DNA from: an uncultured Candidatus Saccharibacteria bacterium
Lineage (GTDB): Bacteria > Patescibacteriota > Minisyncoccia > Phycocordibacterales > UBA12088
Reading direction: 5' to 3'
Assembly (NCBI GenBank): GCA_964567265.1
Contig: CAZMLK010000001.1
Span: 395,723 to 459,722, forward strand
DNA length: 64,000 bases
Part shown: piece after piece, positions 12,458 to 64,000 of the stretch
Layout: each line of letters opens with the position of its first letter
Numbering within the stretch: the first letter of the stretch is position 1
Program-made: the position numbers and the translations under genes
The notes under the pieces: generated by a model
The model's input: only the letters and a program-made list of their open reading frames with translations
What the model was told of the DNA's origin: nothing
Database searches by the model: none

Positions 12458-12550
12458 AGGCGAACACTCTCGTCAATTTGCGTGGAGTCGGGAAAACGCG
12501 TTGTCCTTCGATTTTGAATCACGCTATACTGAAGTTCTAATGAATTCGAA

Positions 12551-16788: not shown

Positions 16789-16798
16789 CCTCTTTCCC

Positions 16799-23324: not shown

Positions 23325-25730
23325 CTATGGAGTCGAAACTGCCCTGAGCATCGGCTCGATGCGGTCAGCAACCCGTGCATACCCGCTGGCATTCGGATGC
23401 ACCAAGTCGCTGCTCGTGAGGAACGGATTTCCCAGGACTCCTTTCAGGATATTCTCGACATACGCCGACTGCGTATCTCGTGCCACGTCCTTATACCGAT
23501 CATTGAGCGACGGGTTGAGGATGCCTCCGCCGAGACCGACCACGAGTACAACTGCTCCCTTCGCCTGGATGCGCTCCACAATGGTCTGCAGGTTCGAGAA
23601 TGTCTCAGCCCGTGAGACCGCGGGCACGCTGAGATTCGCGCCGATGCGGACAAGGATCAAGCGTATGCGTTCAGCAAAAGCCTTGTCGCCAATCGCGAGC
23701 GCTTCCTCATACATCCGGTGAAGCTCATCGTTCGCTCCGAGGAAGACAATGACGACTTTCGGATTCTTGGAAAGGACATCAGCGTCGAGGCGCGCGAGCG
23801 CCATCGAGGTATCGTTGCCGGACACGCCTGCATTCTGGATCGGCTTGCCGAGACGCTGCGAGAGCACGCTTACGTAGTCCTTTCCGGCAGGAGCACCGAC
23901 ACCGGAGGTCAGGCTGTCTCCGAGCGCGATAATATTCTGACCTTTTGATGGGTAGTTCTTGACCGGCCAGGGATTGCCTCCCGGATTCCCGCCGGTACCA
24001 CCCGTGGTTCCCCCGGTAGTACCGGTCGTTCCAGTAGTCCCTGTGGTGCCGGTCGTGCCTGTAGTTCCTGTAGTGCCCGTTGTCCCCGTGCTTCCGCCGC
24101 CGCCAACACGAATGCTGCCAGGACTCGCTCCAACTCGAGTGAACCCATCGTTGATGAATACGCGTGCCTCATAGATGCCATCAGCAAGTGAAGGAAAGGT
24201 CATCGATCCGGATGTTCCACCAGCTGGGATGTACTGCCATGCCGTGTACGAACGATCACCCTGCCCTGCTGCATAGATTCCCACCCAGTCTTTCGCATTG
24301 CGGCTCTGAGGTGCCTGCCAGTTCACGGTCACCGCGCCTCCAGACGGAACGGTTGCTGCTGCAAAGGCGACGGCATATCCGCCGGTACCGCCCGTCGTTC
24401 CTCCTGTGGTCCCTCCGGTCGTACCTGTGGTTCCCGTAGTACCGGTAGTTCCTGTCGTGCCTGTGGTTCCGGTAGTGCCCGTCGTTCCTGTGGTGCCAGT
24501 TGTCCCGCCCGTGGTGCCTCCCGTTCCTCCCATCGTAAATGCATTCGAGACCGCGACATGCGCACCCCCGCTGGTCACAAAATATCGTGCCTCATACACG
24601 CCCGGCTGGAAGCTTGTGAAATCAACGGCACCATCAGCAGATCCGATCGGAACATACTGCCACTTCCAATAGCCGCCATCGCTTCCAGAATTCGGCGTAT
24701 AGATGCCGATCCAGTCATGCGCTCCGACTGCAGGCGTGTGATAGGTCACATGCGCAACGCTGCCATTCACAGTAACTGAGAGCGAATATGAACCTCCGCC
24801 GCCGGTCGTTCCTCCTGTAGAGCCGCCCGTCGTACCTGTGGTTCCCGTAGTGCCCGTTGTCCCTGTCGTGCCAGTGGTCCCCGTCGTTCCAGTAGTACCA
24901 GTTGTGCCGGTTGTGCCCGTTCCGCCACCACCGCCAACACTGACAGAGCCAGGACTGGTCGCTGCACGCGTATATCCATTATTCAAATACAACCGCGCTT
25001 CATACTGGCCGTTCGCAAGTCCCGGAAAGCTGAGCGTTCCAGATGTCGCACCGCCGATGTACTGCCATGCCGTATACGAGCGATCTCCCTGGCCAGTCGC
25101 GTAAATGCCGACCCAATCTTGCGTACCGCGACTTGCGGGCGCCTGCCAGTTGACCACGACAGCACCTCCAGTCGGGACCGAAGCAGATGCGAACGAGACC
25201 GCATATCCTCCGGTACCGCCGGTGGTCCCGCCGGTAGTACCTCCCGTGGTCCCAGTTGTGCCGGTCGTTCCAGTCGTCCCCGTGGTACCGGTCGTGCCTG
25301 TTGTCCCAGATGTACCCGTCGTCCCAGTGGTTCCCGTAGTGCCTCCGGTTGTTCCCGTCCCTCCTCCGCCACCGTACGTGACCGAATTCGAGACTGCGAC
25401 ATGGCTATAGCCATTGGCGACAAGATACCGTGCTTCGTATGTGCCCGGATTGACGTTTAAGAAATCAATCGCTCCGTCTACCGCACCAGCCGGAACGTAC
25501 TGGTACAGGATGAATCCATGGTTGTCTGCTCCCACCGGAAAGAGTCCAATCCAATCCTGGTTGCCGGCCGTCGGCGCATGGTAGGTAACATGAATAATCC
25601 CGCCGGTGACAGTTGCATTCAACGTATAGCTTCCAACCTGCGCGTCAGCCCTTTCCACGGCTCCAAACCCAATGAGGGCGATCGCGGCTGAAAGAAGGAT
25701 TGTTGCCCTGATGGTGGTATGCATGGTCAT
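23325..25730 (-). CDS. secreted multi-domain protein: signal peptide, 4x ~90-aa repeat domain separated by (Thr-Gly)n linkers, C-terminal SGNH/GDSL hydrolase
   Basis: Signal peptide MTMHTTIRATILLSAAIALIG. Four repeats, each with W[IV]G[IL][FY]...[QK]Y...YEAR[YLV], alternating between two subtypes. TGTTGTTGTT linkers. C-terminal GDSLTSG, GANDE and DLVHPN motifs of the SGNH hydrolase family. Confidence 0.8.
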   Translation of the reverse strand: MTMHTTIRATILLSAAIALIGFGAVERADAQVGSYTLNATVTGGIIHVTYHAPTAGNQDWIGLFPVGADNHGFILYQYVPAGAVDGAIDFLNVNPGTYEARYLVANGYSHVAVSNSVTYGGGGGTGTTGGTTGTTGTTGTSGTTGTTGTTGTTGTTGTTGTTGGTTGGTTGGTGGYAVSFASASVPTGGAVVVNWQAPASRGTQDWVGIYATGQGDRSYTAWQYIGGATSGTLSFPGLANGQYEARLYLNNGYTRAATSPGSVSVGGGGGTGTTGTTGTTGTTGTTGTTGTTGTTGTTGTTGGSTGGTTGGGGSYSLSVTVNGSVAHVTYHTPAVGAHDWIGIYTPNSGSDGGYWKWQYVPIGSADGAVDFTSFQPGVYEARYFVTSGGAHVAVSNAFTMGGTGGTTGGTTGTTGTTGTTGTTGTTGTTGTTGTTGTTGGTTGGTTGGTGGYAVAFAAATVPSGGAVTVNWQAPQSRNAKDWVGIYAAGQGDRSYTAWQYIPAGGTSGSMTFPSLADGIYEARVFINDGFTRVGASPGSIRVGGGGSTGTTGTTGTTGTTGTTGTTGTTGTTGGTTGGTGGNPGGNPWPVKNYPSKGQNIIALGDSLTSGVGAPAGKDYVSVLSQRLGKPIQNAGVSGNDTSMALARLDADVLSKNPKVVIVFLGANDELHRMYEEALAIGDKAFAERIRLILVRIGANLSVPAVSRAETFSNLQTIVERIQAKGAVVLVVGLGGGILNPSLNDRYKDVARDTQSAYVENILKGVLGNPFLTSSDLVHPNASGYARVADRIEPMLRAVSTP

Positions 25731-29022: not shown

Positions 29023-30603
29023 CTACATCGTTATCTGCACCGCATTCCCCGCCTGATCGTATCCATTCGCCTTGAAGTAACGGATCTCGTAGCTGCCGGG
29101 AGTGACATTCTGGAATGTGTAGGTGCCCGATGGGCCGGTCGCATACGACCATGCAAGATACGAGCGGTTGCCTGCCCCGGTCGCATAGAGCCCGATCCAG
29201 TCGGTCGTCGTGAACGCAGTACTTGGGCCCACCCAGCTCGCGATGATTGTATTTCCAGATCTCGATGCGGAGAGTGAATATCCGGCTGCGGCAGAAAGAT
29301 CAGCTCGTGCGACTGCCGCCTTCGCCTGTACGGTGATTTCCGGAGTAACTGCAACTGATGTGTATTTATTATTCTTCAGATACCGGATCTCGAAGGTGCC
29401 GGTGCGGTCGAGCGTGAATGTCATGTCGCCGCTCGCAGCATCCCCGGTGTATTTCCAGGTCCCGTAGCTCCGGTTCGACGCGCCCTTCTCATAGATCGCG
29501 ATCCAGTCCTGCGTATTCGACGAGCCTCCTGGCGTCTGCCAGTGCACGGTCACGGTATCACTAACTCGCGGGGTCTGAGAGGAAATCGTGAGCGAGTATC
29601 CGGCTGCCGCTGCAGCGGAGCCCAGTGTATAGGTCGCTGAGGTCGCACGCCGGGTGTAGCCGTTGTTCTCGAAGGTACGCGCCTCATATGCGCCGGGCTC
29701 GAGCGAGTCTGTATTGAAACTGAGCGTTCCCGAATTGCCGGATGGAAGATACTGCCACAGAAGATAGGAGGAATCAGCAGCGCCGACCGGATAGAGCCCG
29801 ACCCAATCCCGCGAACTGCGGCCGGTCGGCGCCTCGAACCGCACCGAGAGCGTATTCCCGGAAATGCCATTGATGGCGAGTGCGTAGTTCCCTACGGGTG
29901 CAGCCGCAGCGCTTCCGGTCGTACCGGTGGTTCCGTCTTCTGTTCCCGTCCCGCCACCACCAGTCACGATCTCGCGCCACGGACCGCTGGGCACATTGCC
30001 CGCGTCCACGAACCGCCAAGACACCAGCATCTGGTCGCCGCCGTTCAAGCAGTCGCGCATGGCGGGAGAGAGATCGATGCCGATTGATTGGCGCGGTCCC
30101 GCGCTTCCGAATACGTACGCAATATCATCCTCACCGTATGGTCCGACATCTTCCCACTGGCCGTAGCAGGTCGCACCGTTCGAGGTGACCGCCACCCAAT
30201 GATTCTTGAGCTGCGAAACGCTCTTGCTCGCGCCGGATTGATACCACGGGATCTGGCTCGCGTTCGATTTCTGGGATCCGTTATTGCCGATGTCGTTATA
30301 CGGAAGCGCGATATAGAACGGATTCTCCTTCGGAGTGAACGCGCACGGGCGGTAGCCGCATCGATTGTCGGGATCGTCTTCCCCGCCGTAATGAGTTGCC
30401 CAGAGCTCGTCCCATGCGCTCGGGACGTTCGAGATGAAGCCGTTGTCTGAGGTCGCGCCTTCGCCTACCCAGAAGACAGTCGCGTTGACCGTTTTCGGGT
30501 TCGTTTCGGTCGCGGTGATGGCTGCTGCCGGGTATGGATAGGCTGCTCCGAGTAGAAGGAGGAATACGGCTAGCGATGCGGCTCTAATGCCCTTCCGATT
30601 CAT
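29023..30603 (-). CDS. secreted protein: N-terminal double-psi beta-barrel-like (RlpA/expansin-type) domain + 3 copies of the same ~90-aa repeat domain found in 23325..25730
   Basis: Signal peptide. N-domain with YGGEDD...C...C.F......LPY...HWVAVT.NGATCYGQWEDVGP pattern. Three repeats with WVGLY/WIAIY/WIGLY ... YEAR/FEIRY. Confidence 0.7.
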   Translation of the reverse strand: MNRKGIRAASLAVFLLLLGAAYPYPAAAITATETNPKTVNATVFWVGEGATSDNGFISNVPSAWDELWATHYGGEDDPDNRCGYRPCAFTPKENPFYIALPYNDIGNNGSQKSNASQIPWYQSGASKSVSQLKNHWVAVTSNGATCYGQWEDVGPYGEDDIAYVFGSAGPRQSIGIDLSPAMRDCLNGGDQMLVSWRFVDAGNVPSGPWREIVTGGGGTGTEDGTTGTTGSAAAAPVGNYALAINGISGNTLSVRFEAPTGRSSRDWVGLYPVGAADSSYLLWQYLPSGNSGTLSFNTDSLEPGAYEARTFENNGYTRRATSATYTLGSAAAAAGYSLTISSQTPRVSDTVTVHWQTPGGSSNTQDWIAIYEKGASNRSYGTWKYTGDAASGDMTFTLDRTGTFEIRYLKNNKYTSVAVTPEITVQAKAAVARADLSAAAGYSLSASRSGNTIIASWVGPSTAFTTTDWIGLYATGAGNRSYLAWSYATGPSGTYTFQNVTPGSYEIRYFKANGYDQAGNAVQITM

Positions 30604-38865: not shown

Positions 38866-40455
38866 TCAAGCAGAGACTTCACGGAGACGCGCCACAAGGA
38901 AGTCTCGGTCCAGGACAGAGAGGAACCAGCCTGCCTTCGGACCGGAATCCTTGCCGAGGAATGACTGATAGAGCGCGCCGAAGAATGCCTTTGCATCAAG
39001 TCCGCTTTCCTTCCGAATCTCGTGGAGCGCGGTGTGAAGTCCTTCCCCAGTGAGAACTTCATTTGATTCGACATATGCAAGCACCTTCCCGAGCGCCGCC
39101 TTCTGCTCGCCTGAAATATTCTTCGCGTCCTCAGGAACGTCGCCTGTCTGGAGCTCGAACTTGAAGTCATCGTCTGCGTACTTGTCGAGCCAGAAGCGCG
39201 CATATTTTGCACGGAGGGCGGCTTCTGCGCGATCGTCTTCGGTGAGCGGACTTCCTTTCATGCGTTCGACTTCCTGGTACAGATCCATGTGCGGCATCTG
39301 CACGATGAACGCGACCTGCGAGAATCGCGGCAAGAAATGCTCGGGGATCATTTCACGCTCCTCAGGGAAATGGATGAAGCGGAAGAGACGCGTATCATCG
39401 TCTTCAACGCCGCTCCACGCCTTCTCCGCGAGCTTGTCGAATTGGTCGAAGAGTATCGGGATCGTATCACCTGCTGGATCGACATTCACTTGCTGGTTGA
39501 TGTCCTTGCCGAGAAGCGCGAGGCGGAAGATATGGGGCGGCAGAAGATCAGCGACATCGCGTGCAGCAGACGCATTCCCTTTCGAAGAAGACATCTTCTT
39601 GCCGCCGATCAGGAAGAACTCGTACGGCACGTTGAATGGCGGCTCGTGGCCAAAGACTTGCTTCGAGATAGCGTTCGCGACCTCGCGTGAGCCACCTTTC
39701 GTGGAGTGGTCCTTCCCCGCACCTTCGATCGCGACATTCATGACTTTGAATTTCGCCGCCCACTCTACTTTCCACGGAAGCTTCGCGCGGCCGTCGAACG
39801 GCGAGACGCTTCCTTCATGCGCGCACCCTTCCGCCCACTTCACCATGTTCGGCATGCAGACATACGAAACCCTTTCACCATCAAATCCGGTGACCTTGGT
39901 GGTGCCGATCTTGCCGCAGTTCTCGCAGATGACCTGGAGCGGATACCAGTCGTCAGGCTTCACTGAGTTTGAAATTTCCTTGTAGAGACGGCGAATGACG
40001 TCTGCGTGTTCAAGCGCGAGGCGGATGACGTCGTTGAATTCGCCCGCGCGATACTTGTCGCTGAGGCGATAGTAGCTTGGGTGGAACCCGGCTTCCTCGA
40101 TGACACCGGTGAACTCGAGTCCGTAGTACTCGGCGAAATTCTTCGCGTTGCCGACGGGAGATGGGATCGTAAAGAGCGGCTGGCCCATGTACTTGCGATA
40201 GACGGCCTCATCGAGGTACGCCGGCATGCCGTCCATCGGGTCCATGTCGTTGATCTCATAGAAAAACTCGTTGTCGACGCCCGCTTCCGTAAGCGCCTCA
40301 GAAATGACTCCGTGGATGGCTGCGCCGCGCATCGAGCCCACGTGTACCCGACCAGAGGCAGTCTTCTCATCGCGTATGACGAGTTTCTCTCCCGCTTTGA
40401 TGCGGGTTGCCAGCTTTTCTTGTATGTCGCCCGTAAGGCGGTCTAGCCAGAACAT
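38866..40455 (-). CDS. lysK: lysyl-tRNA synthetase, class I
   Basis: N-terminal FWLDRL...HVGSMRG (HIGH-like) and the KMSSSKGN motif diagnostic of class-I LysRS. ~530 aa. Confidence 0.8.
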   Translation of the reverse strand: MFWLDRLTGDIQEKLATRIKAGEKLVIRDEKTASGRVHVGSMRGAAIHGVISEALTEAGVDNEFFYEINDMDPMDGMPAYLDEAVYRKYMGQPLFTIPSPVGNAKNFAEYYGLEFTGVIEEAGFHPSYYRLSDKYRAGEFNDVIRLALEHADVIRRLYKEISNSVKPDDWYPLQVICENCGKIGTTKVTGFDGERVSYVCMPNMVKWAEGCAHEGSVSPFDGRAKLPWKVEWAAKFKVMNVAIEGAGKDHSTKGGSREVANAISKQVFGHEPPFNVPYEFFLIGGKKMSSSKGNASAARDVADLLPPHIFRLALLGKDINQQVNVDPAGDTIPILFDQFDKLAEKAWSGVEDDDTRLFRFIHFPEEREMIPEHFLPRFSQVAFIVQMPHMDLYQEVERMKGSPLTEDDRAEAALRAKYARFWLDKYADDDFKFELQTGDVPEDAKNISGEQKAALGKVLAYVESNEVLTGEGLHTALHEIRKESGLDAKAFFGALYQSFLGKDSGPKAGWFLSVLDRDFLVARLREVSA

Positions 40456-44271: not shown

Positions 44272-45090
44272 TTACTGCGCGCTTGTCGAGGTCGCACCCG
44301 CGGGCGCGATTTCGACCGTACGGAGCTCGCGGATGTTGACGGGACTTTTCGCGAGCGCGGTCTCGAACGAATCAGCAGCCTTCGAGCGCAGCGCGCCGAC
44401 GAGCGCGACCAAGGAGCTCGTGATTCCAGGAAGCGCGATCGGAGAATTGGTAGCAGCGATCGTACCCCGCGGAAGCTGCACGATGAAATTCCCGCCGCCC
44501 TGCCCGATCAAGGAGACGGACACCGAGGTCGTCGCCTGGAGGATATCCGCGCTGGTGCTGACTCCGGGAGACGAATACAGCGTGACCCGCGCACGGCTCG
44601 GCCCCACCTCTTCGACCGTGCCGAGCGCGAGCGCGCCGTAGGCGTACACCTTGTCCCCTTTCCGGATGCCACTCTCCTGCCCCGCGTCGATGACGAGCGA
44701 ATCATACGGAATCTCGGGCGGCCGGAGCAGGATGCCCGCGCGGATGCGCGCCCTCTCGGGATTGCGTCCCGCGAATGCGCGCAGGGACTCGTTTTCAGCC
44801 TCAAGAAGTGTCATCGCGACGCTTTTCGCGTTTGCATCGCGGAGTTCCTGCTTCAGCGCGGCATTCTCGTCAACGAGCGCGCGCTTGGAGCGGAGGAGCT
44901 CGATGACGGTACCCGATGACGCGACCGTGCCCGATTCTATCGATGCGACCGGGCGGAGCACGCCGAACACGAGGTTCTCGAGGAACGCCGGCGGCTTCGC
45001 GAAGAAGAAAAGCGCAACGACCAAAAGCGCTCCCATCACTGCGAGCTTGTAGCGGCTGAATGCTGTTTTACGTTCCTGGAGAGAGCGCAT
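44272..45090 (-). CDS. mreC: rod shape-determining protein MreC
   Basis: N-terminal TM, coiled-coil, C-terminal beta domains (GDKVYAYG...). Overlaps the mreB 3' end by 23 nt. Confidence 0.8.
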   Translation of the reverse strand: MRSLQERKTAFSRYKLAVMGALLVVALFFFAKPPAFLENLVFGVLRPVASIESGTVASSGTVIELLRSKRALVDENAALKQELRDANAKSVAMTLLEAENESLRAFAGRNPERARIRAGILLRPPEIPYDSLVIDAGQESGIRKGDKVYAYGALALGTVEEVGPSRARVTLYSSPGVSTSADILQATTSVSVSLIGQGGGNFIVQLPRGTIAATNSPIALPGITSSLVALVGALRSKAADSFETALAKSPVNIRELRTVEIAPAGATSTSAQ

Positions 45091-46141
45091 CTTCGCTTTC
45101 TATGAGCACGTCCGTATGCTGGTCGAGGGTTTCAATGATAACACCGGTTCCGCGCACGACGGAGGTCAACGGATCGTTCGAGCGGTACACCGGGATCTTG
45201 AGGATCGCCGTCAAAAATTCGGGCATGCCGCGGATGAGCGCGCCGCCGCCGACCAAGTGGATGCCGCGCTGCATCACGTCCGCCAGGACTTCAGGCGGCG
45301 TGGTCTCGAGGACCTCGCGGACGGATTCGACCAAGGTATCGATGGAATGGGAAATCGCTTCGCGGATATCGGCGTCTGTAATGACGACCTCACGCGGGAG
45401 GCCGGTCACGAGATCGCGGCCGCGTACGGTCGCTTCGATCGGCGCATCGCCCGGAGATACGGAACAAGCAGCAATCTTGAGCTCCTCCGAGGTCTTCTCG
45501 CCGATCAATATCTTGAATTCGCTCCGGATGTAGGAGGCGATGTCGGCATTCAGCTTGTCGCCCGCGACGCGGAGATTCTTCGCGCGCACGATGCCGGAAA
45601 GCGAGATGACGGCGATATCGGTCGTGCCGCCGCCGATGTCTATGATCATGCTGCCGATCGGCGCATGGATCGGCAGCTTGATGCCGATCGCGGCAGCCAT
45701 CGGCTCCTCGACGATGTAGACCTCGCGGGCGCCGGCATTCTTCGCTGCATCGCGGACCGCCCGCGTCTCGACGTTCGTGATGCCAGACGGCACGCCGATG
45801 ACGACGCGCGGGCCGAAGATCGTGCGGCGTCCTTCCTGCGCTTTGTTGAGGAGGTATGAAAGCATCTCTTCGGTGACCTCGAAGTCCGAGATCACGCCAT
45901 CAACGAGAGGGCGGACGGCCGTGATGTGGGTCGGCGTGCGGCCGAGCATGTCCTTCGCCTGCGCTCCGACGGCGACCACCTGGCCCGTCTTCTGGTTGAT
46001 GGCGACGACGGAGGGCTCATTGAGGACGATGCCCTTGCCGCGAACATACACGAGCGTGTTCGCCGTGCCGAGATCGATGCCGATGTCATTCGAGAAGAGG
46101 TGCGAGAACCTCCCGAACATTTTTTTGAGTCTTTCTACCAT
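45068..46141 (-). CDS. mreB: rod shape-determining actin homolog MreB
   Basis: IGIDLGTANTLVYVRGKGIVLNEPSVVAI phosphate-1 motif and other actin-fold motifs. Start could be the second Met (MFGRF). Confidence 0.9.
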   Translation of the reverse strand: MVERLKKMFGRFSHLFSNDIGIDLGTANTLVYVRGKGIVLNEPSVVAINQKTGQVVAVGAQAKDMLGRTPTHITAVRPLVDGVISDFEVTEEMLSYLLNKAQEGRRTIFGPRVVIGVPSGITNVETRAVRDAAKNAGAREVYIVEEPMAAAIGIKLPIHAPIGSMIIDIGGGTTDIAVISLSGIVRAKNLRVAGDKLNADIASYIRSEFKILIGEKTSEELKIAACSVSPGDAPIEATVRGRDLVTGLPREVVITDADIREAISHSIDTLVESVREVLETTPPEVLADVMQRGIHLVGGGALIRGMPEFLTAILKIPVYRSNDPLTSVVRGTGVIIETLDQHTDVLIESEDALSPGT

Positions 46142-51938: not shown

Positions 51939-51970
51939 ACCCCGCACATCCATGCGGGGTTCTTTCTTAT
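51938..51970. terminator. terminator shared by convergent genes (accccgca-catccatg-cggggt + TTCTTTCTTAT)
   Basis: Hairpin overlapping both stop codons. Confidence 0.6.
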
Positions 51971-54777
51971 ATGATTTTCGGAGGCGATACTGGAAGCGTC
52001 GACTCCTTGCGGTAGCGCGCGAGGATATCTTCCTCCACGAGCGAGCGCGCCTTTCCATATTTGAGATATGAGAGCTGCTTCAGCGCTTCCGCATTCTCAG
52101 GATTCCCCGCCTTCGGTGCCATTGTCCTGATATTGAACGGCTTTGCCGGCCTCCCTTCAGCGAGAATCTTGAGGTACGCGTTCCGGTTGTCGATATTCAT
52201 GATGTCGCTCGCAGCGAAGGTCGGCGCGAACTGCGGCTCGAAGAATTTCGCATCCTCGGCGCCGACGCGGAACACCGCCATCGATCCGACGTTGCCGAAG
52301 ATCGAATCCCGGATGCCCTCCTGGAGCTGCGCGATGAACTGGTGCGCCACCGTGAGCCCGAGCTTGTACTTGCGCGCTTCGGAAAGGATGGTCGAGATGG
52401 AATCGGTGGTGACATTCTGGAATTCGTCGATATAGAGATAGAACGGCGGCATCTCCTTCCCACTGCCGAACGCGTCCACGCGCGAGAGCGCTGCCATGAG
52501 GATCTTGCCGACCAGGATGAGGCCGAGGAGATTCGCGTTGATGTCGCCGAGCCGGCCCTTCGAGAGGTTCACGAGGAGGATCTTCTTCGAATCCATCACC
52601 TCGCGGAAATTGAACGCGGATTTTTCCTGCGCGATGATCGGGCGCATGTACTCGTTCGCGGTGAAGACATCGAACTTGTTCGTGATATACGGCACGATGT
52701 TCGCGAGCGATGCTTCCCCCTGTGCCTTCGTGGCGATCTCCTGCCAGAACTGGAGGACGACCGGGTTCTTGCAGTGTGAGAGCTTGAGCGCGCGATACTT
52801 CGCGTCCGCGAGGACGCGGGACACATCGAGCAAGGTCATGCCGCTCTCGGGGTGCTCGAGGACGAGCAGCGTCGCGTTGCGGAAATACTGCTCGAATGCA
52901 GGGCCCATCGACTCGGGAGAGCCGGCGTACAACTTCTTGAAGATGCTGAAAAGCTCATTGACCACGAAGGTCTTCTGTTCCGGGAACCGGGGATCGTATT
53001 CGAGCATGTTGAGGCCCATCACGCGCTCCATGTATGCGGGATCGAAGTAGATGACGTCTTCCGCGCGCTCGGGCGGGATCGCGGCGAGGATATCCTGCAC
53101 ATCGCTACCATGCGGATCGATGAAACAGACGCCTGCGCCCTCCTCTATGTCCTGGATGATCATGTTCTTGAGGAGCGTCGTCTTACCGGTACCCGTCTGC
53201 CCGATCACGTAGAAATGTCGGAGGCGATCCTCTGGCGCGAGATACGCTTTCGTTTCCGCATTACGGAATGAATTGATGCCGAGAAGCGTCCCCGTTGCTG
53301 AGAGCCCGAGCGGCGGCGGCGCGTCAGCGGATTTCGACTGCCGGAATTCGGGCGAGGATTTCACGACGCCTGTCGGGAAGTGGAGCACAGTCGCAAGCTC
53401 GCGGAGCGAAAACGGGAACGATTCGGCGGCGCCGAAATCACGGAAGGTGAAGCGTGTCAGGAGCGCACGAAGCGCGCCGCCCGTCGCCCGTACGAATTCG
53501 AAGCGATTGCCATCCGCATGATGGAATTGATGGAAGCTCGATTCGATGTCGCGAAGGATGCCTTCAGCGCGCGCCTGGTCAGTCGCGGATACCACGATGC
53601 GGACATTGACCGGCACAATGAAGGATTCCCTCTTTTTCCTGATCGCTTCAAGGGCGACCTTGTCGACAATCTTTTCCTCAGGCGCCTCTTTTGCTTCAGC
53701 CGGCTTCGAGGAGAGGAGTGCGCCTTTGAGCGCGCCGCCGATCGCGAATGCGGCACTTCCGAGAAGGCTCGATTCGACTTCGCGATACACGATCTTTGGC
53801 TTCTCACCCTTCTCGATACGCTTCTCGATGCGGAGGTAGCGCCCGAGATAATCGTCACGGCCAGGTCGGATCACGAACTGGATCGACGCACCTGCTCCCT
53901 CCTTCTCGATTTTCGAGAACGCATTCAAAAGCACTGAGAGCGGATCGACATCAAATGCATCGTAGGTTTTTATCGGATAGATCGGGAGTTCTGCAAGGCG
54001 CGCGGTCGAAGCCAGTGTCACGCCGTTCTCTACGAAGATGTTGTAGTCGCCTTTTTCCTCGCGGAGATGCGCATGCGGGAAGAGCGACAAGAGCTGCTTC
54101 TCGAACAGCTCTGCCTTGGTGGTCGGCACCGATACATAGAAGACGATTTCCTGGCTTGCTGATGAAACGGCGACTTCGAAGACGAAGACCTCGCCGGTGT
54201 CATTCTCGCGAGATCCCGTGCCGAAGAGTCCCGAATAGAATTGTTCCATCACAGAGACCAGCTCCTTGATGGTCTTCCGCTTCGCGCTTCCGGCATCCTC
54301 ATCCTGATTGATGGAAGGCAGTGTCACTTCGTACAAGGTCATGTTGAGCTCGCGCCAGACCGGCTCATTTTCCTTCACCCCCGGCACTGGATATCCGGCA
54401 TGGATGTATTGCACGAGGACGCGGTGGAAATCGTCGGCGATATGCGGGCTATCCATGCGGTCAGCGACCGTGAGCGCATTCTTGAGTCCCTTGTCGCGCA
54501 TGACGCCAAGAAGCTCGCCCATGATGGCGTCGTCCTTCTCAGGCGGCAGGTCGAGGATGATGTCATCCACTTGCTCGGCAGTGAGGATGCGTTCCTGTGG
54601 GAGCACTGATTCCGAAAGCGCGCGTCGGTATTCCTCGATATGCGCGCTTGTTGCCGCTTCCTTGGAGACCGGATAGCCGATTTCTGCCATGGCACGCTCC
54701 TTCTCCGCGATCTGGCCGCGCAGATACTGAATCTCCTCCTCAGGAGAGGAGAATTTCTCGTTCACTGGGAATTCCAT
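51967..54777 (-). CDS. TraD/VirD4/TraG-like P-loop ATPase (type IV coupling-protein-like / HerA-FtsK superfamily) with ~450-aa unknown N-terminal domain
   Basis: Walker A GQTGTGKTT, Walker B LYIDEFQNV, and the C-terminal TVAHQFIAQL...GSMAVFRVG motif typical of TraG/TraD C-domains. 936 aa; no TM segment obvious. Confidence 0.75.
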   Translation of the reverse strand: MEFPVNEKFSSPEEEIQYLRGQIAEKERAMAEIGYPVSKEAATSAHIEEYRRALSESVLPQERILTAEQVDDIILDLPPEKDDAIMGELLGVMRDKGLKNALTVADRMDSPHIADDFHRVLVQYIHAGYPVPGVKENEPVWRELNMTLYEVTLPSINQDEDAGSAKRKTIKELVSVMEQFYSGLFGTGSRENDTGEVFVFEVAVSSASQEIVFYVSVPTTKAELFEKQLLSLFPHAHLREEKGDYNIFVENGVTLASTARLAELPIYPIKTYDAFDVDPLSVLLNAFSKIEKEGAGASIQFVIRPGRDDYLGRYLRIEKRIEKGEKPKIVYREVESSLLGSAAFAIGGALKGALLSSKPAEAKEAPEEKIVDKVALEAIRKKRESFIVPVNVRIVVSATDQARAEGILRDIESSFHQFHHADGNRFEFVRATGGALRALLTRFTFRDFGAAESFPFSLRELATVLHFPTGVVKSSPEFRQSKSADAPPPLGLSATGTLLGINSFRNAETKAYLAPEDRLRHFYVIGQTGTGKTTLLKNMIIQDIEEGAGVCFIDPHGSDVQDILAAIPPERAEDVIYFDPAYMERVMGLNMLEYDPRFPEQKTFVVNELFSIFKKLYAGSPESMGPAFEQYFRNATLLVLEHPESGMTLLDVSRVLADAKYRALKLSHCKNPVVLQFWQEIATKAQGEASLANIVPYITNKFDVFTANEYMRPIIAQEKSAFNFREVMDSKKILLVNLSKGRLGDINANLLGLILVGKILMAALSRVDAFGSGKEMPPFYLYIDEFQNVTTDSISTILSEARKYKLGLTVAHQFIAQLQEGIRDSIFGNVGSMAVFRVGAEDAKFFEPQFAPTFAASDIMNIDNRNAYLKILAEGRPAKPFNIRTMAPKAGNPENAEALKQLSYLKYGKARSLVEEDILARYRKESTLPVSPPKII

Positions 54778-55618: not shown

Positions 55619-56632
55619 CTACCGCTTCGCGATGATGCTCTTCTTGTAGACGTCGAGATGGTTGAGCGCGATGCCGGTCCCCTTCACCACGCAATACGGG
55701 GCCTCTTTCGCAAGAACCGCCTTCACGCCCGTGCGACGGAGCACGAGTTCCGGGAAATTGCGAAGCTGCGAGGTGCCGCCGGTCATGATGATGCCCTTGT
55801 CGATGATGTCGGAGGCAAGCTCGGGCGGCGTCTCCTGGAGCACATCCTTGATCGCCTTGATCATTTCCCGCAAGTCGCGCGCGGTCGCTTTCACGATCTC
55901 ATTCGTCTTCACTTCTGCAGTGCGCGGAAGGCCGGTCAAGAGATCCCGGCCGCGGATCGACATGATGAGTTCCTCTTCAAGAGGGACGGCCGAGCCGACC
56001 TCGATCTTTATGCGCTCAGCGGTCTTGTCGCCGATCGCGAGATTGAAGGTCTTCTTCACATAATCGGTGATCGCATGATCGAGGCGGTTCCCGGCGCATT
56101 TCACGGACGTCGAGGCGACGATGCCGCCGAGCGAGATCACGGCGACGTCGATCGTGCCGCCGCCGATGTCGACGATCATATGCCCACGCGGCTCATGGAT
56201 CGGAATGCCGGCGCCGATTGCCGCAAGAATCGGTTCCTTGACCACGTACGCATTCTTCGCACCCGCGTTCACTGCGGCTTCGACGACGGCGCGGCGCTCG
56301 GTCGAAGTGACGCCCGCTGGAACCGAGATCATCACGTCCGGGCGGAACAGCGTCCACTTCCCCATCGATTTGCGGATATAGTAGCGGAGCATCGCTTCGG
56401 TGACGCGATAATCGGCGATGACGCCATCTTTCATCGGGCGGTACGCGATGATCGATTCCGGAGTGCGTCCGATCATCTCCTTCGCGTCGTTGCCGACCGC
56501 GAGGATCTTGTTGTCGCTGACGGAGACGGCGACCACCGACGGCTCATTGAGCACGATGCCCGCGCCCGGCACGAAGACGAGTGTCGTCGTGGTCCCGAGG
56601 TCGATCCCGATTTTCTTGGTGAAAAATGACAT
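55619..56632 (-). CDS. second MreB/Mbl-family actin homolog
   Basis: KKIGIDLGTTTTLVFVPGAGIVLNEPSVVAV plus the full set of actin-fold motifs. Start trimmed to MSFFTKK. Confidence 0.8.
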   Translation of the reverse strand: MSFFTKKIGIDLGTTTTLVFVPGAGIVLNEPSVVAVSVSDNKILAVGNDAKEMIGRTPESIIAYRPMKDGVIADYRVTEAMLRYYIRKSMGKWTLFRPDVMISVPAGVTSTERRAVVEAAVNAGAKNAYVVKEPILAAIGAGIPIHEPRGHMIVDIGGGTIDVAVISLGGIVASTSVKCAGNRLDHAITDYVKKTFNLAIGDKTAERIKIEVGSAVPLEEELIMSIRGRDLLTGLPRTAEVKTNEIVKATARDLREMIKAIKDVLQETPPELASDIIDKGIIMTGGTSQLRNFPELVLRRTGVKAVLAKEAPYCVVKGTGIALNHLDVYKKSIIAKR

Positions 56633-56736
56633 GGTGTCGCCTAGGCAGTATACCTGCTTGCGCTTTGCTGGTCGTTGTTGACATATTGGACTTAATATGT
56701 TTTTATATCTCTCAGACAAACACAGGAGGACCTCCC

Positions 56737-59521: not shown

Positions 59522-60826
59522 TTATGCGCACATCCTCGTGCGTTCTATATGAACGCCGATCGATCGGAGGCGTGCCTCGATGTTCGCGTATCCTCGGTCG
59601 ATGAAGTACGCGTTATTAATAGTCGAATTCCCTTTCGCTATGATACCGGCGATCAGGAACGCGAGTCCAGCGCGGATGTCCGGGCCGTCGACTTCCCTTC
59701 CCTTAAGGAGCGTTGGGCCCTTCACGGTCGCGCGGTGCGCATCCCATACCTTTATGTCGGCGCCCATGTGGACCAGATCCTGCGCGTAGTTGAGGCGATT
59801 CTCGTAGATCGTCTCGAACACCAGCCCCTCGCCGCTCGACTGCGTGAGGAACACCGTCATCGGCGCCTGGAGGTCGGTCGGGAATCCCGGATACTCATGC
59901 GTTTTCAAATCGAAGGAAGTAAAGTCCGAATTCGCAATCTTCCCGTTCCCGCTAATCTGAATGAAGTCGGCACCAATCTCCATCGGGACGCTGGCACTCT
60001 GGAGTGTCCGAATCACGCTCCACGCGTGATTCGGATTGCAGTTCGAAATCCGAAGATTGTCGGCCGCAAGCGCACCGAGGACGAGGAAGCTCCCCAGCTC
60101 AATGCGATCAGGAATAATGCGGTACTGCTTTCCCTCCGATTTCAGAAGCGCGCCGCCTTCGATCTCGATGGTCGGCGAACCAGCGCCGGTGATCTTGGCG
60201 CCACAGGAGTTCAGAAATTCAGCGAGGTCGGCAATCTCCGGCTCCATCGCCGCATTCCGAAGCGTGGTCTTCCCTTCTGCGAGCACTGCGGCAAGCATGA
60301 GCGCTTCGGTTGCGGTTACGCTCATTACCGTAAAAAATATATCAGCTCCGCGGAGCTTGCCGTCTTTCGCGGCAATCTCGTAGTGAGAATCATGTGTGGT
60401 AATCGTCGCACCCATCGCTTTGTACGCGGACAGGAAGAGATCGATCGGCCGCGGACCGATGACACACCCGCCTGGATGTGGAAAAGAGACTTTGCCGAAG
60501 CGGCCAAGAAGGGGTCCGGTCAAGATCACAGAAGCGCGCATGCGCTTGGCGGCGTCCGCATCGATGACGGTCTCGAACAAATCCTCCGTTGCAACCTCGA
60601 TGGTATCTCCCGATTGCGTGGTTCCTGCGCCGAGCTTTTCAAGAATCTCTCCCATCCGCTTCACATCCTCGATTACGGGAACATTCGTGAGTGTGAGCGT
60701 GTCCGAAAAAACGATTGCTGAAGCGAGCGCCGGAAGTACCGAATTCTTTGCGCCGCCGATCACCACTTCACCGGATAGGGTCTTCTCACCACCGAGGCCA
60801 GTGATATGGAATGATTCTTTGTTCAT
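59522..60826 (-). CDS. murA: UDP-N-acetylglucosamine 1-carboxyvinyltransferase
   Basis: MNKESFHITGLGGEKTLSGEVVIGGAKNSVLPALASAIV N-terminus, catalytic Cys region, EPT fold repeats. Start trimmed to the internal Met. Confidence 0.9.
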   Translation of the reverse strand: MNKESFHITGLGGEKTLSGEVVIGGAKNSVLPALASAIVFSDTLTLTNVPVIEDVKRMGEILEKLGAGTTQSGDTIEVATEDLFETVIDADAAKRMRASVILTGPLLGRFGKVSFPHPGGCVIGPRPIDLFLSAYKAMGATITTHDSHYEIAAKDGKLRGADIFFTVMSVTATEALMLAAVLAEGKTTLRNAAMEPEIADLAEFLNSCGAKITGAGSPTIEIEGGALLKSEGKQYRIIPDRIELGSFLVLGALAADNLRISNCNPNHAWSVIRTLQSASVPMEIGADFIQISGNGKIANSDFTSFDLKTHEYPGFPTDLQAPMTVFLTQSSGEGLVFETIYENRLNYAQDLVHMGADIKVWDAHRATVKGPTLLKGREVDGPDIRAGLAFLIAGIIAKGNSTINNAYFIDRGYANIEARLRSIGVHIERTRMCA

Positions 60827-60867
60827 GTCGGAACAATTGTACGGGCAGGCGAGACTTGGCACAAATC

Positions 60868-60902
60868 GCCCGCCGGTTGGGCCCTTGGCCCAACCGGCGG
60901 GC
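60868..60902. other. 16-bp perfect GC-rich hairpin (gcccgccggttgggcc-ctt-ggcccaaccggcgggc), no U-tract
   Basis: Perfect inverted repeat in the murA/priA divergent spacer. Confidence 0.5.
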
Positions 60903-61255
60903 GTCCCTTGCACTATCCCCACACTTGTTGCCTAAACCGCTCTATGCTACATTGACGACGTAGCAGACAACGGAGGTATGCTCATTATGTTGAGCTTGCG
61001 GTCGACTTATCGTGCCGATACCCACCTCCCCTCGAAGGAGACCGATTTCGTCCAGGAAGCCCTGGATATTCCACCGAGAGACCCGCTCTTCGATCATCCA
61101 ATCGGCGATTAACGCTAATCGCCCCACGCCGACCCGCACTCGTGCGGGTCTCACCTAGAGGGTGAACGGGCTCTGTTTCTCCCCGTTCAAAGCCTTCGGC
61201 CCTGCTGACCCATTTTTGGTCAGCAGGGCTTTCTACTTTCAGGTATGCTAGGAAG

Positions 61256-63154
61256 ATGCGCCTTTTGCACGTCTATCCCATCTCAAGGGGTATCGCCAAG
61301 GATGAACTGACCTATTTCACGTCAATCGAGGCGGCGCCCGGTTCGATTGTCTCTGTCCCGCTCCGCTCGAAGACCATCCCCGCGCTCATCATCTCCTCCG
61401 AGGACGTGAGCGACGCGCGCGCCGAGCTCCGGCAATCCGATTTCGCGCTCCGGAAGATCGCGGCCCGTTCAGCGCGCGCGCTCTTCTTCCCCGCCTACGT
61501 CGATGCGATCCTGAGGTCGGCTGAATACTATGCGGCCGCGCCCGGCGCGCTCTTCGCTGCGACCATCCCCTCGACCCTTTTCAAGGAACCCTTGAAGCTC
61601 TCGCTTCCCGAAAAAATCCTTGAGAGCAGGACGGGCGGCGTCATCGGCGAGAAGCTGATCTTCCAGGGCGGCCCGACCGAGCGCCTCGAGCATCATAAGA
61701 ATCTCGTACGGGAAGAATTCGCGCGGAACCGCTCCGTATTCATCCTCGTGCCGACCGTGCGCGACCTCGAGCGGCTGGATGTATTCCTTTCCCGCGGCAT
61801 TCCTGACTTCGTCTTCGCACTCCATGGCTCGCTTCCGGAAAAGGAAATGCGCGCGCGCTGGAACAAGGCGGTGACCCTCGACCATCCCGTCGTCATCATC
61901 GGGACGGGATCATTCCTCTCGATTCCCCGCTCTGACATCGGCACCATCATCGTCGAGCGCGAGAGCGCAGGCTCGTACAAAGCGATGTCGCGCCCGTTCA
62001 CCGACATGCGCGTCGTCGCTGAGCGTCTGGCAGAAGCCCTCCACGCACGGTTCATCCTTGCGGATCTGCCGCTCCGGGTCGAGAGCGTCCACCGCTTCCG
62101 CGTCGGCGATTTCGACGAGCGCACGCCGATCCGCACGCGCGCCGTGGCCACCGCCGAGGCGACGCTCGTCGACATGCGGGAGGAGAAATCACCAGACAAG
62201 AAGGAGAAGTTCGTCGTGCTCAGCCAGACACTGATCAATGGAATCAAGGAGACCCTCGCGGCAAAAGAGAATGTCTTCCTCTTCACGGTGCGCCGCGGCA
62301 TGTCCCCCCTCACCGTCTGCGAGGACTGCGGGAACACGGTGCTCTGCGACGTCACGAAGACGCCGGTCACGCTCCACAAGGGGCCGAAAGGAAATGTCTT
62401 CGTCTGCCATTCCTGCGGCGCGATCCGTCCGGGCGACGAGCGCTGCCGGTTCTGCAATTCGTGGCGCCTGCAGTCGCTGGGCATCGGGAGCCAATTCGTT
62501 GAAGAGTTGGTGCGGAAGACCTTTCCAGAAGCAGAACTTTTTGCAATCGACCGCGATCGCACGAAAACCCATCGCGAAGCGACGAAGGTGGGCGAGAAAT
62601 TTGCCGCCGCGGAAGGAGCGATTCTCCTTGGTACAGAGATGGCGCTTCCGTATCTCCCTGACACCGTGGCACTCGCCGGCGTCGTCTCCATCGATTCCCT
62701 GCTCTCGCTTCCCGAATGGAACGCGTTCGAGCGCGTGTTTGGCATCATCACGCGCCTCCGGAGCGCAGCATCGAAGAAGCTGATCCTCCAGAGCCGGAAG
62801 ACCGAAGCCGATGTGCTCGAGTTCGCGCTTCGCGGCAATACCAGCGATTTTTATAAGGGCGAGCTCGATGCGCGGAAACAGTTCGGCTATCCGCCGTTCA
62901 CGATGTTCATAAAGATCACTTGCGAGGGAACTGCGGCCAAGGCATCATCCGACATGAAAGACGTCGAGAACGCATTCGAGCCCTATGGTTTCAGCGGCCG
63001 TTCGCACCTCATGCATACCGGCAAAGGCCGCTACGTGGTCCACGGATTCCTCCGCATCCCCAAGAAGGACTGGCCGAATCCAGAAATTGTTTCACTGCTC
63101 CGCTCCCTTCCCCCGCATATCACGGTCACTGTTGACCCTGACAGTATTTTGTAG
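61256..63154 (+). CDS. priA: primosomal protein N' (PriA)-like protein with degenerate ATPase motifs
   Basis: PriA-like N-terminal DNA-binding region and the Cys-rich zinc region CEDCGNT...CHSCGA...CRFCNS. Conserved blocks LHGSLPEKEMRARW and VIIGTGSFLSIP match PriA motifs II/III. Walker A is replaced by QGGPTERLE and DEEH by ERES. Confidence 0.7.
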   Translation: MRLLHVYPISRGIAKDELTYFTSIEAAPGSIVSVPLRSKTIPALIISSEDVSDARAELRQSDFALRKIAARSARALFFPAYVDAILRSAEYYAAAPGALFAATIPSTLFKEPLKLSLPEKILESRTGGVIGEKLIFQGGPTERLEHHKNLVREEFARNRSVFILVPTVRDLERLDVFLSRGIPDFVFALHGSLPEKEMRARWNKAVTLDHPVVIIGTGSFLSIPRSDIGTIIVERESAGSYKAMSRPFTDMRVVAERLAEALHARFILADLPLRVESVHRFRVGDFDERTPIRTRAVATAEATLVDMREEKSPDKKEKFVVLSQTLINGIKETLAAKENVFLFTVRRGMSPLTVCEDCGNTVLCDVTKTPVTLHKGPKGNVFVCHSCGAIRPGDERCRFCNSWRLQSLGIGSQFVEELVRKTFPEAELFAIDRDRTKTHREATKVGEKFAAAEGAILLGTEMALPYLPDTVALAGVVSIDSLLSLPEWNAFERVFGIITRLRSAASKKLILQSRKTEADVLEFALRGNTSDFYKGELDARKQFGYPPFTMFIKITCEGTAAKASSDMKDVENAFEPYGFSGRSHLMHTGKGRYVVHGFLRIPKKDWPNPEIVSLLRSLPPHITVTVDPDSIL

Positions 63155-63177: not shown

Positions 63178-63744
63178 TTGGCTAGAATCCTCCATATGAC
63201 CCCAAAGATAGTCCAGAAGGGCGACCCCGTGCTCGGAAAGAAAGCAGCCGAGGTCCCCATTTCCGAGATCACCTCGAAAAAGATCAAGAAGATCGTCGCC
63301 GACATGAAGGCGGCGCTTTCGAAGGAAGCGGATGGCGCGGCGATCGCCGCGCCGCAGATCGGGCACTCGCTCCGCATTTTCGTTGTGTCCGGCCGCATCC
63401 TCGCGAAGGACGATGGCAGCGAGGGCGTCGCTCCCGACATCACCTTCATCAACCCCGTCATTACCAAGCTCTCGAAGACCAAGAAGCCGCTCGACGAGGG
63501 CTGCCTCTCGGTCCGCGGCTACTATGGCATCATCGAGCGCTCGACCAAGGCGACCGTGAAAGCCTATGACGAGTGGGGCAAATCGTTCATGCGCGGCGGC
63601 AGCGGCCTCTTGGCGCAGGTGTTCCAGCACGAATGCGACCACCTCGATGGAATCCTTTTTGTCGAGAAGGCGAAGGATTTCTGGCTCGTTCCTGCCGAAA
63701 CCAAGGGCGGTAAGACGAAGAAATCCGCCGAAAAAAAGAAATGA
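63178..63744 (+). CDS. def: peptide deformylase
   Basis: GAAIAAPQIG, EGCLSV and HECDHL metal-binding motifs. Confidence 0.9.
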   Translation: MARILHMTPKIVQKGDPVLGKKAAEVPISEITSKKIKKIVADMKAALSKEADGAAIAAPQIGHSLRIFVVSGRILAKDDGSEGVAPDITFINPVITKLSKTKKPLDEGCLSVRGYYGIIERSTKATVKAYDEWGKSFMRGGSGLLAQVFQHECDHLDGILFVEKAKDFWLVPAETKGGKTKKSAEKKK

Positions 63745-64000
63745 TGAAGAATCTCAAAATCGTCTTCTTCGGATCGCCGCCCCTTGCGCAGATTACGCTT
63801 AAAGAATTGAAAGAAGCCGGGATCCTTCCGGTACTCATCGTCACGATGCCGGACGCGAGCGAGGGGCGGCGCGGCGAAGCGCTTCCCGCTCCGATCCGCC
63901 TCTGGGCGGAAGCGGAAGGTATCGACCTCCTCCAGCCCACTGATATCAATGACGAAGCGCTCCAGGACGCGCTCCGGAATACAGAATGGGACCTCTTCGT
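63741..64000 (+). CDS. fmt: methionyl-tRNA formyltransferase (5' part; continues past window)
   Basis: MMKNLKIVFFGSPPLAQITLKEL...PDAS N-terminal formyltransferase motif; the ATGA overlaps the def stop. Confidence 0.85.
   Translation, partial: MMKNLKIVFFGSPPLAQITLKELKEAGILPVLIVTMPDASEGRRGEALPAPIRLWAEAEGIDLLQPTDINDEALQDALRNTEWDLF

Follow-up and report, generated by a model that had tools for sequence, protein, structure and literature searches.

A PriA Ortholog of Patescibacteria Without Its ATP-Site Motifs: A Probable Pseudohelicase of Replication Restart

A stretch of 64,000 nucleotides from an uncultured Candidatus Saccharibacteria bacterium (contig CAZMLK010000001.1; hereafter the window, with positions counted from its first nucleotide) encodes a protein of the PriA family in which the catalytic helicase motifs have been replaced. 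The product is probably the PriA of a lineage of Patescibacteria (Candidate Phyla Radiation, CPR, of the Paceibacteria type), acting as a pseudohelicase that recognizes replication forks and recruits DnaB without ATP. Judged from the alignments, every motif that binds or hydrolyzes ATP is destroyed in this protein, and the same is true of 265 of the 265 relatives examined. An earlier note on this DNA had proposed a pure loader or adaptor that kept the interaction modules of PriA, and the evidence gathered in silico agrees with this interpretation: the loss of the motifs, a ratio of nonsynonymous to synonymous substitution rates (dN/dS) of 0.03, the predicted fold, the conservation of residues that contact single-stranded DNA (ssDNA) or hold the cysteine-rich region (CRR) in its 'UP' position, and the residues D357 and W403 all point in this direction. 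The winged-helix (WH) domain and one zinc ligand, which the note had counted as present, are not retained.

Identity of the PriA Homolog

The gene is an uninterrupted open reading frame (ORF) with an ATG start:

61256–63154, plus strand: priA, predicted pseudohelicase form of primosomal protein N' (632 codons and a stop codon; assigned from PriA homology and dN/dS)

The protein of 632 amino acids (aa) is a real PriA ortholog, as the earlier note had claimed of it under the name of a homolog, and the peptide strings quoted in that note are all found in the ORF translation. The NCBIfam model TIGR00595 ('replication restart helicase PriA') matches it with 228.8 bits (E=1e-67), 1.5 bits short of the curated equivalog cutoff of 230.35 bits, and twelve further PriA profile models in the same search also match. 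The sole relevant Pfam match, PF17764 (PriA_3primeBD), is likewise sub-threshold, at 22.1 bits (E=1.4e-4) or 0.6 bits under the cutoff of 22.7 bits. In a phmmer search of the Protein Data Bank (PDB), PriA chains alone were significant, with Klebsiella pneumoniae 4NL4 at E=5e-35 and Escherichia coli 6DCR and 8FAK at E~7e-29. Furthermore, a profile built from 117 family members aligns with residues 15–729 of E. coli PriA at an hhalign probability of 100%, and the nine best structural matches found by Foldseek are all PriA. Among canonical relatives, the PriAs of Firmicutes score best by tblastn (E=2e-44 to 2e-41). Matches to a GATA zinc finger in Pfam and to a NaMN adenylyltransferase in the PDB were dismissed, being sub-threshold and confined to the CxxC region.

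At NCBI, the records of the clade are mostly labeled 'hypothetical protein', probably because the curated thresholds are narrowly missed, while the JGI label is primosomal protein N' and many relatives carry a precomputed PF17764 match. CPR genomes can be mis-scored as lacking PriA in this way, as the protein falls under the TIGR00595 cutoff and has no above-threshold Pfam match.

Loss of the Catalytic Helicase Motifs

The helicase motifs were placed with MAFFT and hhalign against E. coli PriA (NC_000913) and seven canonical PriAs from a plasmid collection (Listeria, Staphylococcus aureus, Monoglobus, Bacteroides, Acaryochloris, Fusobacterium and Rhizobium), representing five phyla in total. 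These eight sequences are nearly invariant at the motifs, and the window protein deviates from them at all except motif IV:

61664–61696, plus strand: motif I (Walker A) remnant, QGGPTERLEHH for GVTGSGKTEVY, with R143 in the column of K230
Motif Ia, placed by alignment: PTVRDL for the canonical PEIxLT
61949–61969, plus strand: motif II (Walker B/DExH) remnant, IVERESA for VIDEEHD, thus ERES for DEEH
61982–62017, plus strand: aromatic-rich loop, replaced, AMSRPFTDMRVV for QQEGWRYHARDL; family motif RPxxDxR
62060–62071, plus strand: motif III remnant, ADLP for GSAT (DLPL versus SATP)
62282–62308, plus strand: motif IV, retained, FTVRRGMSP, with R346/R347 equivalent to E. coli R427/R428
62621–62662, plus strand: motif V, altered, ILLGTEMALPYLPD for ILIGTQMLAKGHHFP (GTEMALP versus GTQMxxKG)
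62753–62767, plus strand: motif VI remnant, RL-----RSA, in which a five-residue deletion takes out GRAGR, including the arginine R584 (canonical QVxGRAGR)

The losses of Walker A and of DEEH had both been claimed before, and the alignments bear them out: QGGPTERLEHH sits on GVTGSGKTEVY and IVERESAGSYK on VIDEEHDSSYK. Placement of the motifs holds when the canonical PriAs are aligned, and the losses also cover motif Ia, the aromatic-rich loop (core RPFTDMR, versus the canonical (P/W)RYHAR) and motifs III, V and VI. Mis-assigned blocks, with an intact Walker A or B elsewhere in the protein, had been named as a possible refutation. In a pattern scan of the whole window protein, no Walker A ([AG]xxxxGK[ST]) and no DExH/D motif was found elsewhere. 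The Walker A pattern does occur elsewhere in 3 of the 265 relatives, where it was rejected as a true motif, its frequency being about that expected by chance.

The same substitutions are shared by the relatives, a set of 265 distinct proteins composed of the best 120 matches in a collection of 5.8 billion proteins and 150 listed clusters from a search of cluster representatives. The nucleotide-contacting motifs I, II, III and VI are lost in the window protein and in all of these relatives. At motif I, GK is absent in 265/265, the K230 column is arginine in 264/265, and the family loop is acidic (consensus QADDEER). At motif II, the D320 column is E or D, E321 is mostly replaced by R or K, E322 is kept as E in 257/265, and H323 is mostly S or N. 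The S356 column of motif III holds D in 237/265, and the deletion in motif VI is present in every relative (265/265). In the aromatic-rich loop, the family alignment shows R252 to be invariant and R246, P247 and D250 to be conserved to 90% or more; in motif V, T460 is invariant and the Q539 column is E in 113 of 120 relatives.

With all the motifs of the ATP site lost, the protein would neither bind nor hydrolyze ATP, and hence would neither translocate along DNA nor unwind it. The columns of the former active site have not drifted freely: Q137, R143, E234, E236, D270, T460 and R502 are fixed or nearly so, and the (near-)invariance of R143, E236, D270, T460 and R502 indicates that the cleft is constrained and not merely decayed. 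It may be speculated that the former ATP cleft is closed by an internal salt-bridge network of R143, the acidic loop and R502.

The loss of the P-loop is specific to PriA, as the helicase presumed to be its client, encoded elsewhere in the window, has an ordinary Walker A (ARPSIGKTS) and the P-loops of the genome are thus not generally odd:

15406–16788, plus strand: dnaB, replicative helicase (Pfam DnaB_C at 339.8 bits, with a DnaB N-terminal domain)

The dnaB gene is directly followed by recR with a 17-nt overlap (together 15406–17419); with rmuC a short way off on the minus strand (18949–20013), they form a small replication and recombination cluster. With dnaB, recR and rmuC, the window encodes recombination-linked replication functions.

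Domain Architecture and Predicted Structure

In the structural model, the window protein is a PriA fold minus the WH domain, comprising a 3' DNA-binding domain (3'BD), two RecA-like helicase lobes (HD1 and HD2) with the CRR inserted in lobe 2, and a domain at the C-terminus (CTD):

61256–61585, plus strand: 3'BD, aa 1–110 (PF17764 over aa 18–105; hhalign; AlphaFold2, AF2)
61586–61651, plus strand: short linker, aa 111–132, replacing the WH domain of E. coli PriA (residues 109–181; hhalign gap)
61652–62155, plus strand: HD1, about aa 133–300, approximate boundary (alignment with K. pneumoniae and E. coli PriA, AF2, Foldseek)
62156–62899, plus strand: HD2, about aa 301–548, approximate boundary, holding the CRR insertion (alignment, AF2, Foldseek)
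62309–62467, plus strand: CRR, aa 352–404, equivalent to E. coli 433–484 (alignment; W403 after the last CxxC)
62900–63151, plus strand: CTD, aa 549–632 (hhalign to E. coli residue 729; AF2)

The earlier note had described the N-terminus as both winged-helix and 3'-binding, of which the second part stands and the first does not. Hhalign pairs aa 17–110 of the window protein with E. coli 15–106, in agreement with the near-threshold PF17764 match, and the AF2 model forms β-strands and helices in this domain with a predicted local distance difference test score (pLDDT) of about 78–94. Where the domain limits of E. coli PriA place the WH domain (PMC5778457), the window protein has about 22 residues, and models of PriA without the WH domain fit it best. 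The stretch from the 3'BD to HD1 has a median of 31 residues in the family, versus about 110 in E. coli.

The AF2 model, made from the family alignment, has a mean pLDDT of 90.8, a predicted template-modeling (TM) score of 0.89 and no segment below 50. Its lowest confidence lies in the linker (aa 121–130, pLDDT 62), and the CTD is modeled as β-α-β-β-β-α-β with a pLDDT mostly above 90. In the Foldseek search of the PDB, with TM-scores normalized by query length, the nine PriA chains reach 0.63–0.81, followed by Mfd as the next family (E=2e-9) and then by other superfamily 2 (SF2) helicases. The matches of most interest, with TM-score and root-mean-square deviation (rmsd), are as follows:

8fak_H, PriA in a PriA/PriB/fork complex: TM 0.81, rmsd 5.0
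6dcr_A, apo E. coli PriA from which the WH domain was deleted: TM 0.70, rmsd 8.6
4nl4, PriA bound to ADP: TM 0.69, rmsd 8.4

Apo PriA structures as a group score 0.63–0.70, below 8fak_H. Since the 8FAK model as deposited, like 6DCR, is also without the WH domain, the better fit to 8FAK reflects conformation. In fork-bound PriA the CRR pivots to enclose the lagging-strand ssDNA (PMC10175261; PMC13594977), and the comparison suggests that the AF2 model resembles this state, with the CRR pivoted around the lagging-strand ssDNA.

Candidate Residues for Fork and Partner Binding

The 265 relatives were scored at the residues of E. coli PriA with defined roles (PMC13594977; PMC10175261), given here in E. 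coli numbering:

R427, R428 (ssDNA contacts in the pore): R in 261/265; R or K in 259/265
H455, E492, D513 (keep the CRR 'UP', the position that recruits partners): H or Y in 255/265; E, D or Q in 247/265; D or E in 246/265
D438 (CRR face docking PriB), equivalent to D357 at 62324–62326: D in 256/265
T482 (CRR face docking PriB), equivalent to W403 at 62462–62464: Trp in 262/265; E, T, S, D or K in canonical PriAs
Y18 (3'BD pocket), equivalent to Y20: at least 90% conserved
K61 (3'BD pocket): K or R in 116/120

The arginines of motif IV, which in E. coli contact the lagging-strand ssDNA within the pore (PMC13594977), are those of the one motif that the window protein retains. The family-specific W403 directly follows the last CxxC, within the motif C-x-x-C-x-S-W-[RK]-L, and the face formed by D357 and W403 is a candidate partner-docking surface. 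The contacts of the CRR in its 'DOWN' position (H437, Q397 and H599/H600) were set aside as uninformative, being variable in the family and among canonical PriAs alike.

The Cysteine-Rich Region and Its Zinc Sites

Canonical PriA binds two zinc ions through eight cysteines arranged as four CxxC pairs (PMC5778457). The earlier note had called these cysteines intact; in fact seven of the eight ligands are present in the window protein (C355, C358, C364, C384, C387, C397 and C400, giving three CxxC pairs and one lone cysteine), and the equivalent of E. coli C448 is replaced by T367 (62354–62356). The pattern in which cysteines are lost together suggests that the inner four form one zinc site and the outer four the other. 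Across 266 sequences (the window protein and its 265 relatives), the outer quartet C355, C358, C397 and C400 (E. coli C436/C439/C476/C479) is invariant (266/266). The inner quartet (E. coli C445/C448/C463/C466; C364, T367, C384 and C387 in the window protein) is complete in 230 of the 266 and partly or wholly lost in 36, with all four cysteines missing in 14.

The incomplete forms are mostly mutual nearest neighbors and close to the window protein; they include P0006–P0009, P0025, P0074 and P0102. They can be arranged in a decay series from CCCtCCCC, the first step, seen in the window protein, through CCCtCsCC and CCdtCsCC to CCdtssCC. In E. coli, the inner-site mutations C445G and C448G abolish helicase activity but leave the ATPase (PMC5778457), and the inner zinc site carries the β-hairpin that serves as the unwinding wedge. 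The stepwise loss in this sub-clade may represent relaxation after the death of the helicase, as sporadic decay of the inner site would be expected if selection for unwinding had ceased.

Conservation, Selection, and Gene Context

The best 120 protein matches are about 630 aa long, and the few with a source name are labeled Paceibacterota, Paceibacteria, Parcubacteria, Minisyncoccia or 'Patescibacteria group'. The search of representatives of 50% identity clusters listed 150 matches of at least 429 bits each, all with dead motifs. In the same search, 3,892 matches fall at E<=1e-30, a figure that is not a clade size since a canonical PriA with a score of about 124 bits would come out near this threshold too. 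The sole match to a species-representative genome, L002 (CAYPKR010000002.1; 63% identity), bears the title uncultured Candidatus Saccharibacteria bacterium, which differs from the labels of the other named relatives (Paceibacterota, Paceibacteria, Parcubacteria, Minisyncoccia); this may reflect a mislabeled genome or a broader clade.

In L003, an independent contig that comes from a different sample, the encoded motifs are the same at 88% nucleotide and 96% aa identity, which excludes the sequencing error that had been named as a possible refutation. Between the two genes dS is 0.61, dN 0.018 and dN/dS 0.03, with 0.033 for the helicase core alone. The dead-motif PriA is under strong purifying selection and is a property of the clade.

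The gene lies in an arrangement that is kept among its relatives:

59522–60922, minus strand: murA-like gene, divergent, upstream neighbor of priA (Pfam EPSP_synthase, E=4e-73)
63178–63744, plus strand: def, peptide deformylase (Pfam PF01327, E=2e-40), about 23 nt downstream of priA
63741–64000, plus strand: start of fmt, methionyl-tRNA formyltransferase, overlapping the def stop codon and extending past the end of the window (tblastn with the L003 fmt, 94% identity over 86 aa)

The order murA(-)/priA/def/fmt is kept in L003 and in two further relatives' loci, L004 and L005, down to 36% identity, and the murA-like neighbor is also upstream of priA in L004 and L005. In canonical Firmicutes, priA is followed by def in Monoglobus and by fmt in Listeria. 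A tblastn search with E. coli PriA finds a single PriA-like sequence in the 64-kb window, and likewise a single one in the locus of each of four relatives. Between priA and def, L003 has an 89-aa ORF (2357–2626), L004 a 91-aa GIY-YIG protein (11994–12269), and L005 a 146-aa ORF on the opposite strand (12091–12531).

The divergent intergenic region between murA and priA measures 330 nt, and its plus strand at 60930–61240 has a predicted RNA fold with a minimum free energy of -121.4 kcal/mol (z=-5.9). A terminator-like hairpin with a 13-bp stem (61198–61230) ends 26 nt before the priA ATG. Compared with L003, about 120 nt (60939–61060) differ by approximately one mismatch despite a dS of 0.6 in priA, and the terminator stem is identical, with changes confined to the loop. 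Possible identities of the element are a small structured RNA and a leader. A search against Rfam gave only sub-threshold small RNA matches and none above threshold, and the element is not conserved in L002. A 70-aa ORF also lies within the region on the minus strand (60942–61154).

Comparison With Known PriA Pseudohelicases and Mutants

The idea of a pseudohelicase PriA is already known from Deinococcus-Thermus and from E. coli K230 mutants; what differs here is the CPR lineage, the deeper degeneration, a WH domain that is naturally absent and an inner zinc site in decay. Lopper, Boone & Morrow (2015, PMC4504706) showed that Deinococcus radiodurans PriA has neither ATPase nor helicase activity and yet is able to bind ssDNA, forks and DnaB, and the PriAs of Deinococcus-Thermus have arginine in place of the Walker lysine and poor motifs I and II (PMC4504706). 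The window protein is alike in being a PriA ortholog kept as the PriA of its lineage, with motifs I and II off consensus and the Walker lysine replaced by arginine (R143; 264/265), and the function shown experimentally for the Deinococcus protein is the one proposed here. The two differ in lineage (Patescibacteria/CPR for the window protein) and in extent: while the text of PMC4504706 covers motifs I and II, the window protein is also without the glycine-rich P-loop, motifs Ia, III and VI, the aromatic-rich loop and the WH domain, with decay of the inner zinc site under way in its sub-clade.

In E. coli, PriA with K230R (priA300), K230A or K230D supports primosome assembly and restart through PriA and PriB (PMC5778457; PMC10175261). 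These mutants are dead as ATPases and helicases and still competent in restart, as is proposed for the window protein, and K230R also has the same arginine in the K230 column. They are, however, single-residue laboratory mutants of an intact helicase that works with PriB and DnaT, whereas the state seen here is natural, ancient, clade-wide and spread over multiple motifs. E. coli PriA with the WH domain deleted (6DCR) has the same domain content of 3'BD, HD1, HD2 with CRR, and CTD (TM 0.70), but is an engineered deletion of an active helicase, while the window protein is naturally WH-less, catalytically dead by its motifs and closer to 8FAK (TM 0.81). Canonical PriAs of Firmicutes (Listeria, Staphylococcus, Monoglobus) share the priA-def or priA-fmt gene order, but they have 797–815 aa with all seven helicase motifs and eight cysteines intact, and the residues by which they are longer correspond to the N-terminal region in which E. 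coli PriA has its WH domain.

In the literature on PriA in Patescibacteria, CPR, Parcubacteria, Saccharibacteria or Paceibacteria, no description of a dead-motif PriA was found, with incomplete full-text coverage. One publication, PMC10849945, concerns an unrelated novel family that adjoins priA in the phylum UBP6 and does not describe the PriA of this clade.

Proposed Function and Alternative Explanations

As a pseudohelicase, the protein would still recognize abandoned forks and D-loops. Its 3'BD would take hold of the nascent leading strand's 3' end, and HD1, HD2, the CRR and the CTD would hold the lagging-strand template, in keeping with the conservation of the motif IV arginines and of the CRR 'UP' residues. 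DnaB would then be recruited directly, or through a partner that docks on the D357/W403 face of the CRR. Several points weigh against this proposal. The loss of ATPase activity, the binding of forks and the recruitment of DnaB are all inferred from sequence for the entire clade. The pocket for the 3' end is conserved in part only, as D17 is replaced by S or T and G37 by R. The constraint on the former ATP cleft suggests room for another ligand or an intramolecular role, and the likeness of the model to the fork-bound conformation may be a modeling artifact. In addition, the genome was viewed through 64 kb, and a second, canonical PriA, as well as PriB, DnaT, DciA or Rep, may be encoded elsewhere.

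Some of these points would fit a protein that has left replication restart altogether, the former ATP cleft and the CRR tryptophan now serving another DNA-binding or scaffolding role in recombination, in the processing of competence DNA or as a regulator. Family-specific invariant residues do replace the catalytic ones (R143 in 264/265, E236, D270, and W403 in 262/265), the WH domain is lost, and the scores fall under the curated cutoffs of TIGR00595 and PF17764. Such neofunctionalization is nonetheless unlikely, given that the priA-def-fmt context is that of canonical priA, that the contact residues for forks and ssDNA defined in E. coli are kept, that the Deinococcus pseudohelicase still binds forks and DnaB (PMC4504706), and that neither the window nor the loci of the four relatives show another PriA candidate. 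The last observation also bears on whether the protein could be an accessory paralog, a regulatory or partner subunit beside a canonical ATP-hydrolyzing PriA or another helicase that unwinds. A view of 64 kb leaves space for such an enzyme, and the DNA-repair genes of the window (recR, rmuC and that of a HerA-like ATPase) indicate that helper enzymes exist. However, a single copy of priA is the norm and CPR genomes measure about 1 Mb, the tblastn search found just one locus each in the window and in the regions of the four relatives, the gene occupies the canonical priA position beside def and fmt, and the 270 best listed relatives (120 and 150; 265 distinct) all have dead motifs, with no intact paralogs among them. 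We therefore regard an accessory paralog as very unlikely.

Invariant charged residues in the cleft could also belong to a cryptic enzyme that binds and hydrolyzes nucleotide through a non-canonical site, made of R143, E236 and R502 or corresponding to the second, weaker nucleotide-binding site proposed in E. coli PriA, of unassigned location (PMC5778457). This is highly improbable: the P-loop glycines are replaced by acidic residues (QADDEER) that would repel phosphate, K230R alone abolishes the ATPase of E. coli PriA (PMC5778457; PMC4504706), all 265 relatives have lost the arginine-finger segment by deletion, and the elements that couple DNA binding to hydrolysis, namely motifs Ia and III and the aromatic-rich loop, whose role in E. 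coli PriA has been described (PMC5175346; PMC10175261), are gone as well. Finally, nothing beyond the unusual motifs speaks for a sequencing or assembly artifact or for a pseudogene on its way out, an explanation that is scarcely credible in view of the uninterrupted frame of 632 codons, the same motifs in the independent L003 (88% nucleotide and 96% aa identity, dN/dS 0.03), the same changes in 265 relatives and the confident fold prediction.

A more far-reaching version of the pseudohelicase proposal, which we consider doubtful, is that across a CPR class, and possibly more widely, PriA has been turned into a minimal fork clamp that needs no ATP. The invariant arginine and the acidic former P-loop would occupy the old nucleotide pocket as a 'pseudo-nucleotide', locking the two RecA lobes and the CRR into a conformation that encircles ssDNA and recruits partners, and W403 would dock DnaB or a new partner directly. 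If this were true, the protein would be fixed in a state that E. coli PriA attains only once it has bound a fork, and would represent a natural minimal form of replication restart without the PriA motor, the WH domain, PriB, DnaT or PriC.

Other Features of the Window

Two full-length MreB paralogs are encoded on the minus strand (45068–46141 and 55619–56719; 442 and 436 bits), and the window also holds two penicillin-binding protein (PBP) transpeptidases and mraW. A 936-aa ORF (51967–54777, minus strand) has as its sole Pfam match a short, weak one to HerA/DUF87 (aa 506–557) and may be a large P-loop ATPase. Three consecutive ORFs on the minus strand, of 801, 978 and 526 aa (23325–25730, 25912–28848 and 29023–30603), match GDSL lipase, β-helix, Ig-like and peptidoglycan-binding domains, with weak SKICH-like matches, and look like surface or secreted proteins. 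A lysyl-tRNA synthetase of the class I type, the rarer form in bacteria, is encoded at 38866–40455 on the minus strand (tRNA-synt_1f, E=7e-81).

Implications

The pseudohelicase state of PriA is not a curiosity of Deinococcus-Thermus. The clade described here, large, uncultivated and strongly conserved, has dropped the motor, the WH domain and, in part, one zinc site, and has kept the 3'BD, the residues of the ssDNA pore, the outer zinc site and the CTD. It thus offers a natural experiment that defines the minimal PriA for its essential role, as well as a small and stable protein that suits structural and biochemical studies. It bears on the reloading of DnaB by PriA in the numerous bacteria with neither PriB nor DnaT and on the purpose of the helicase activity of PriA.

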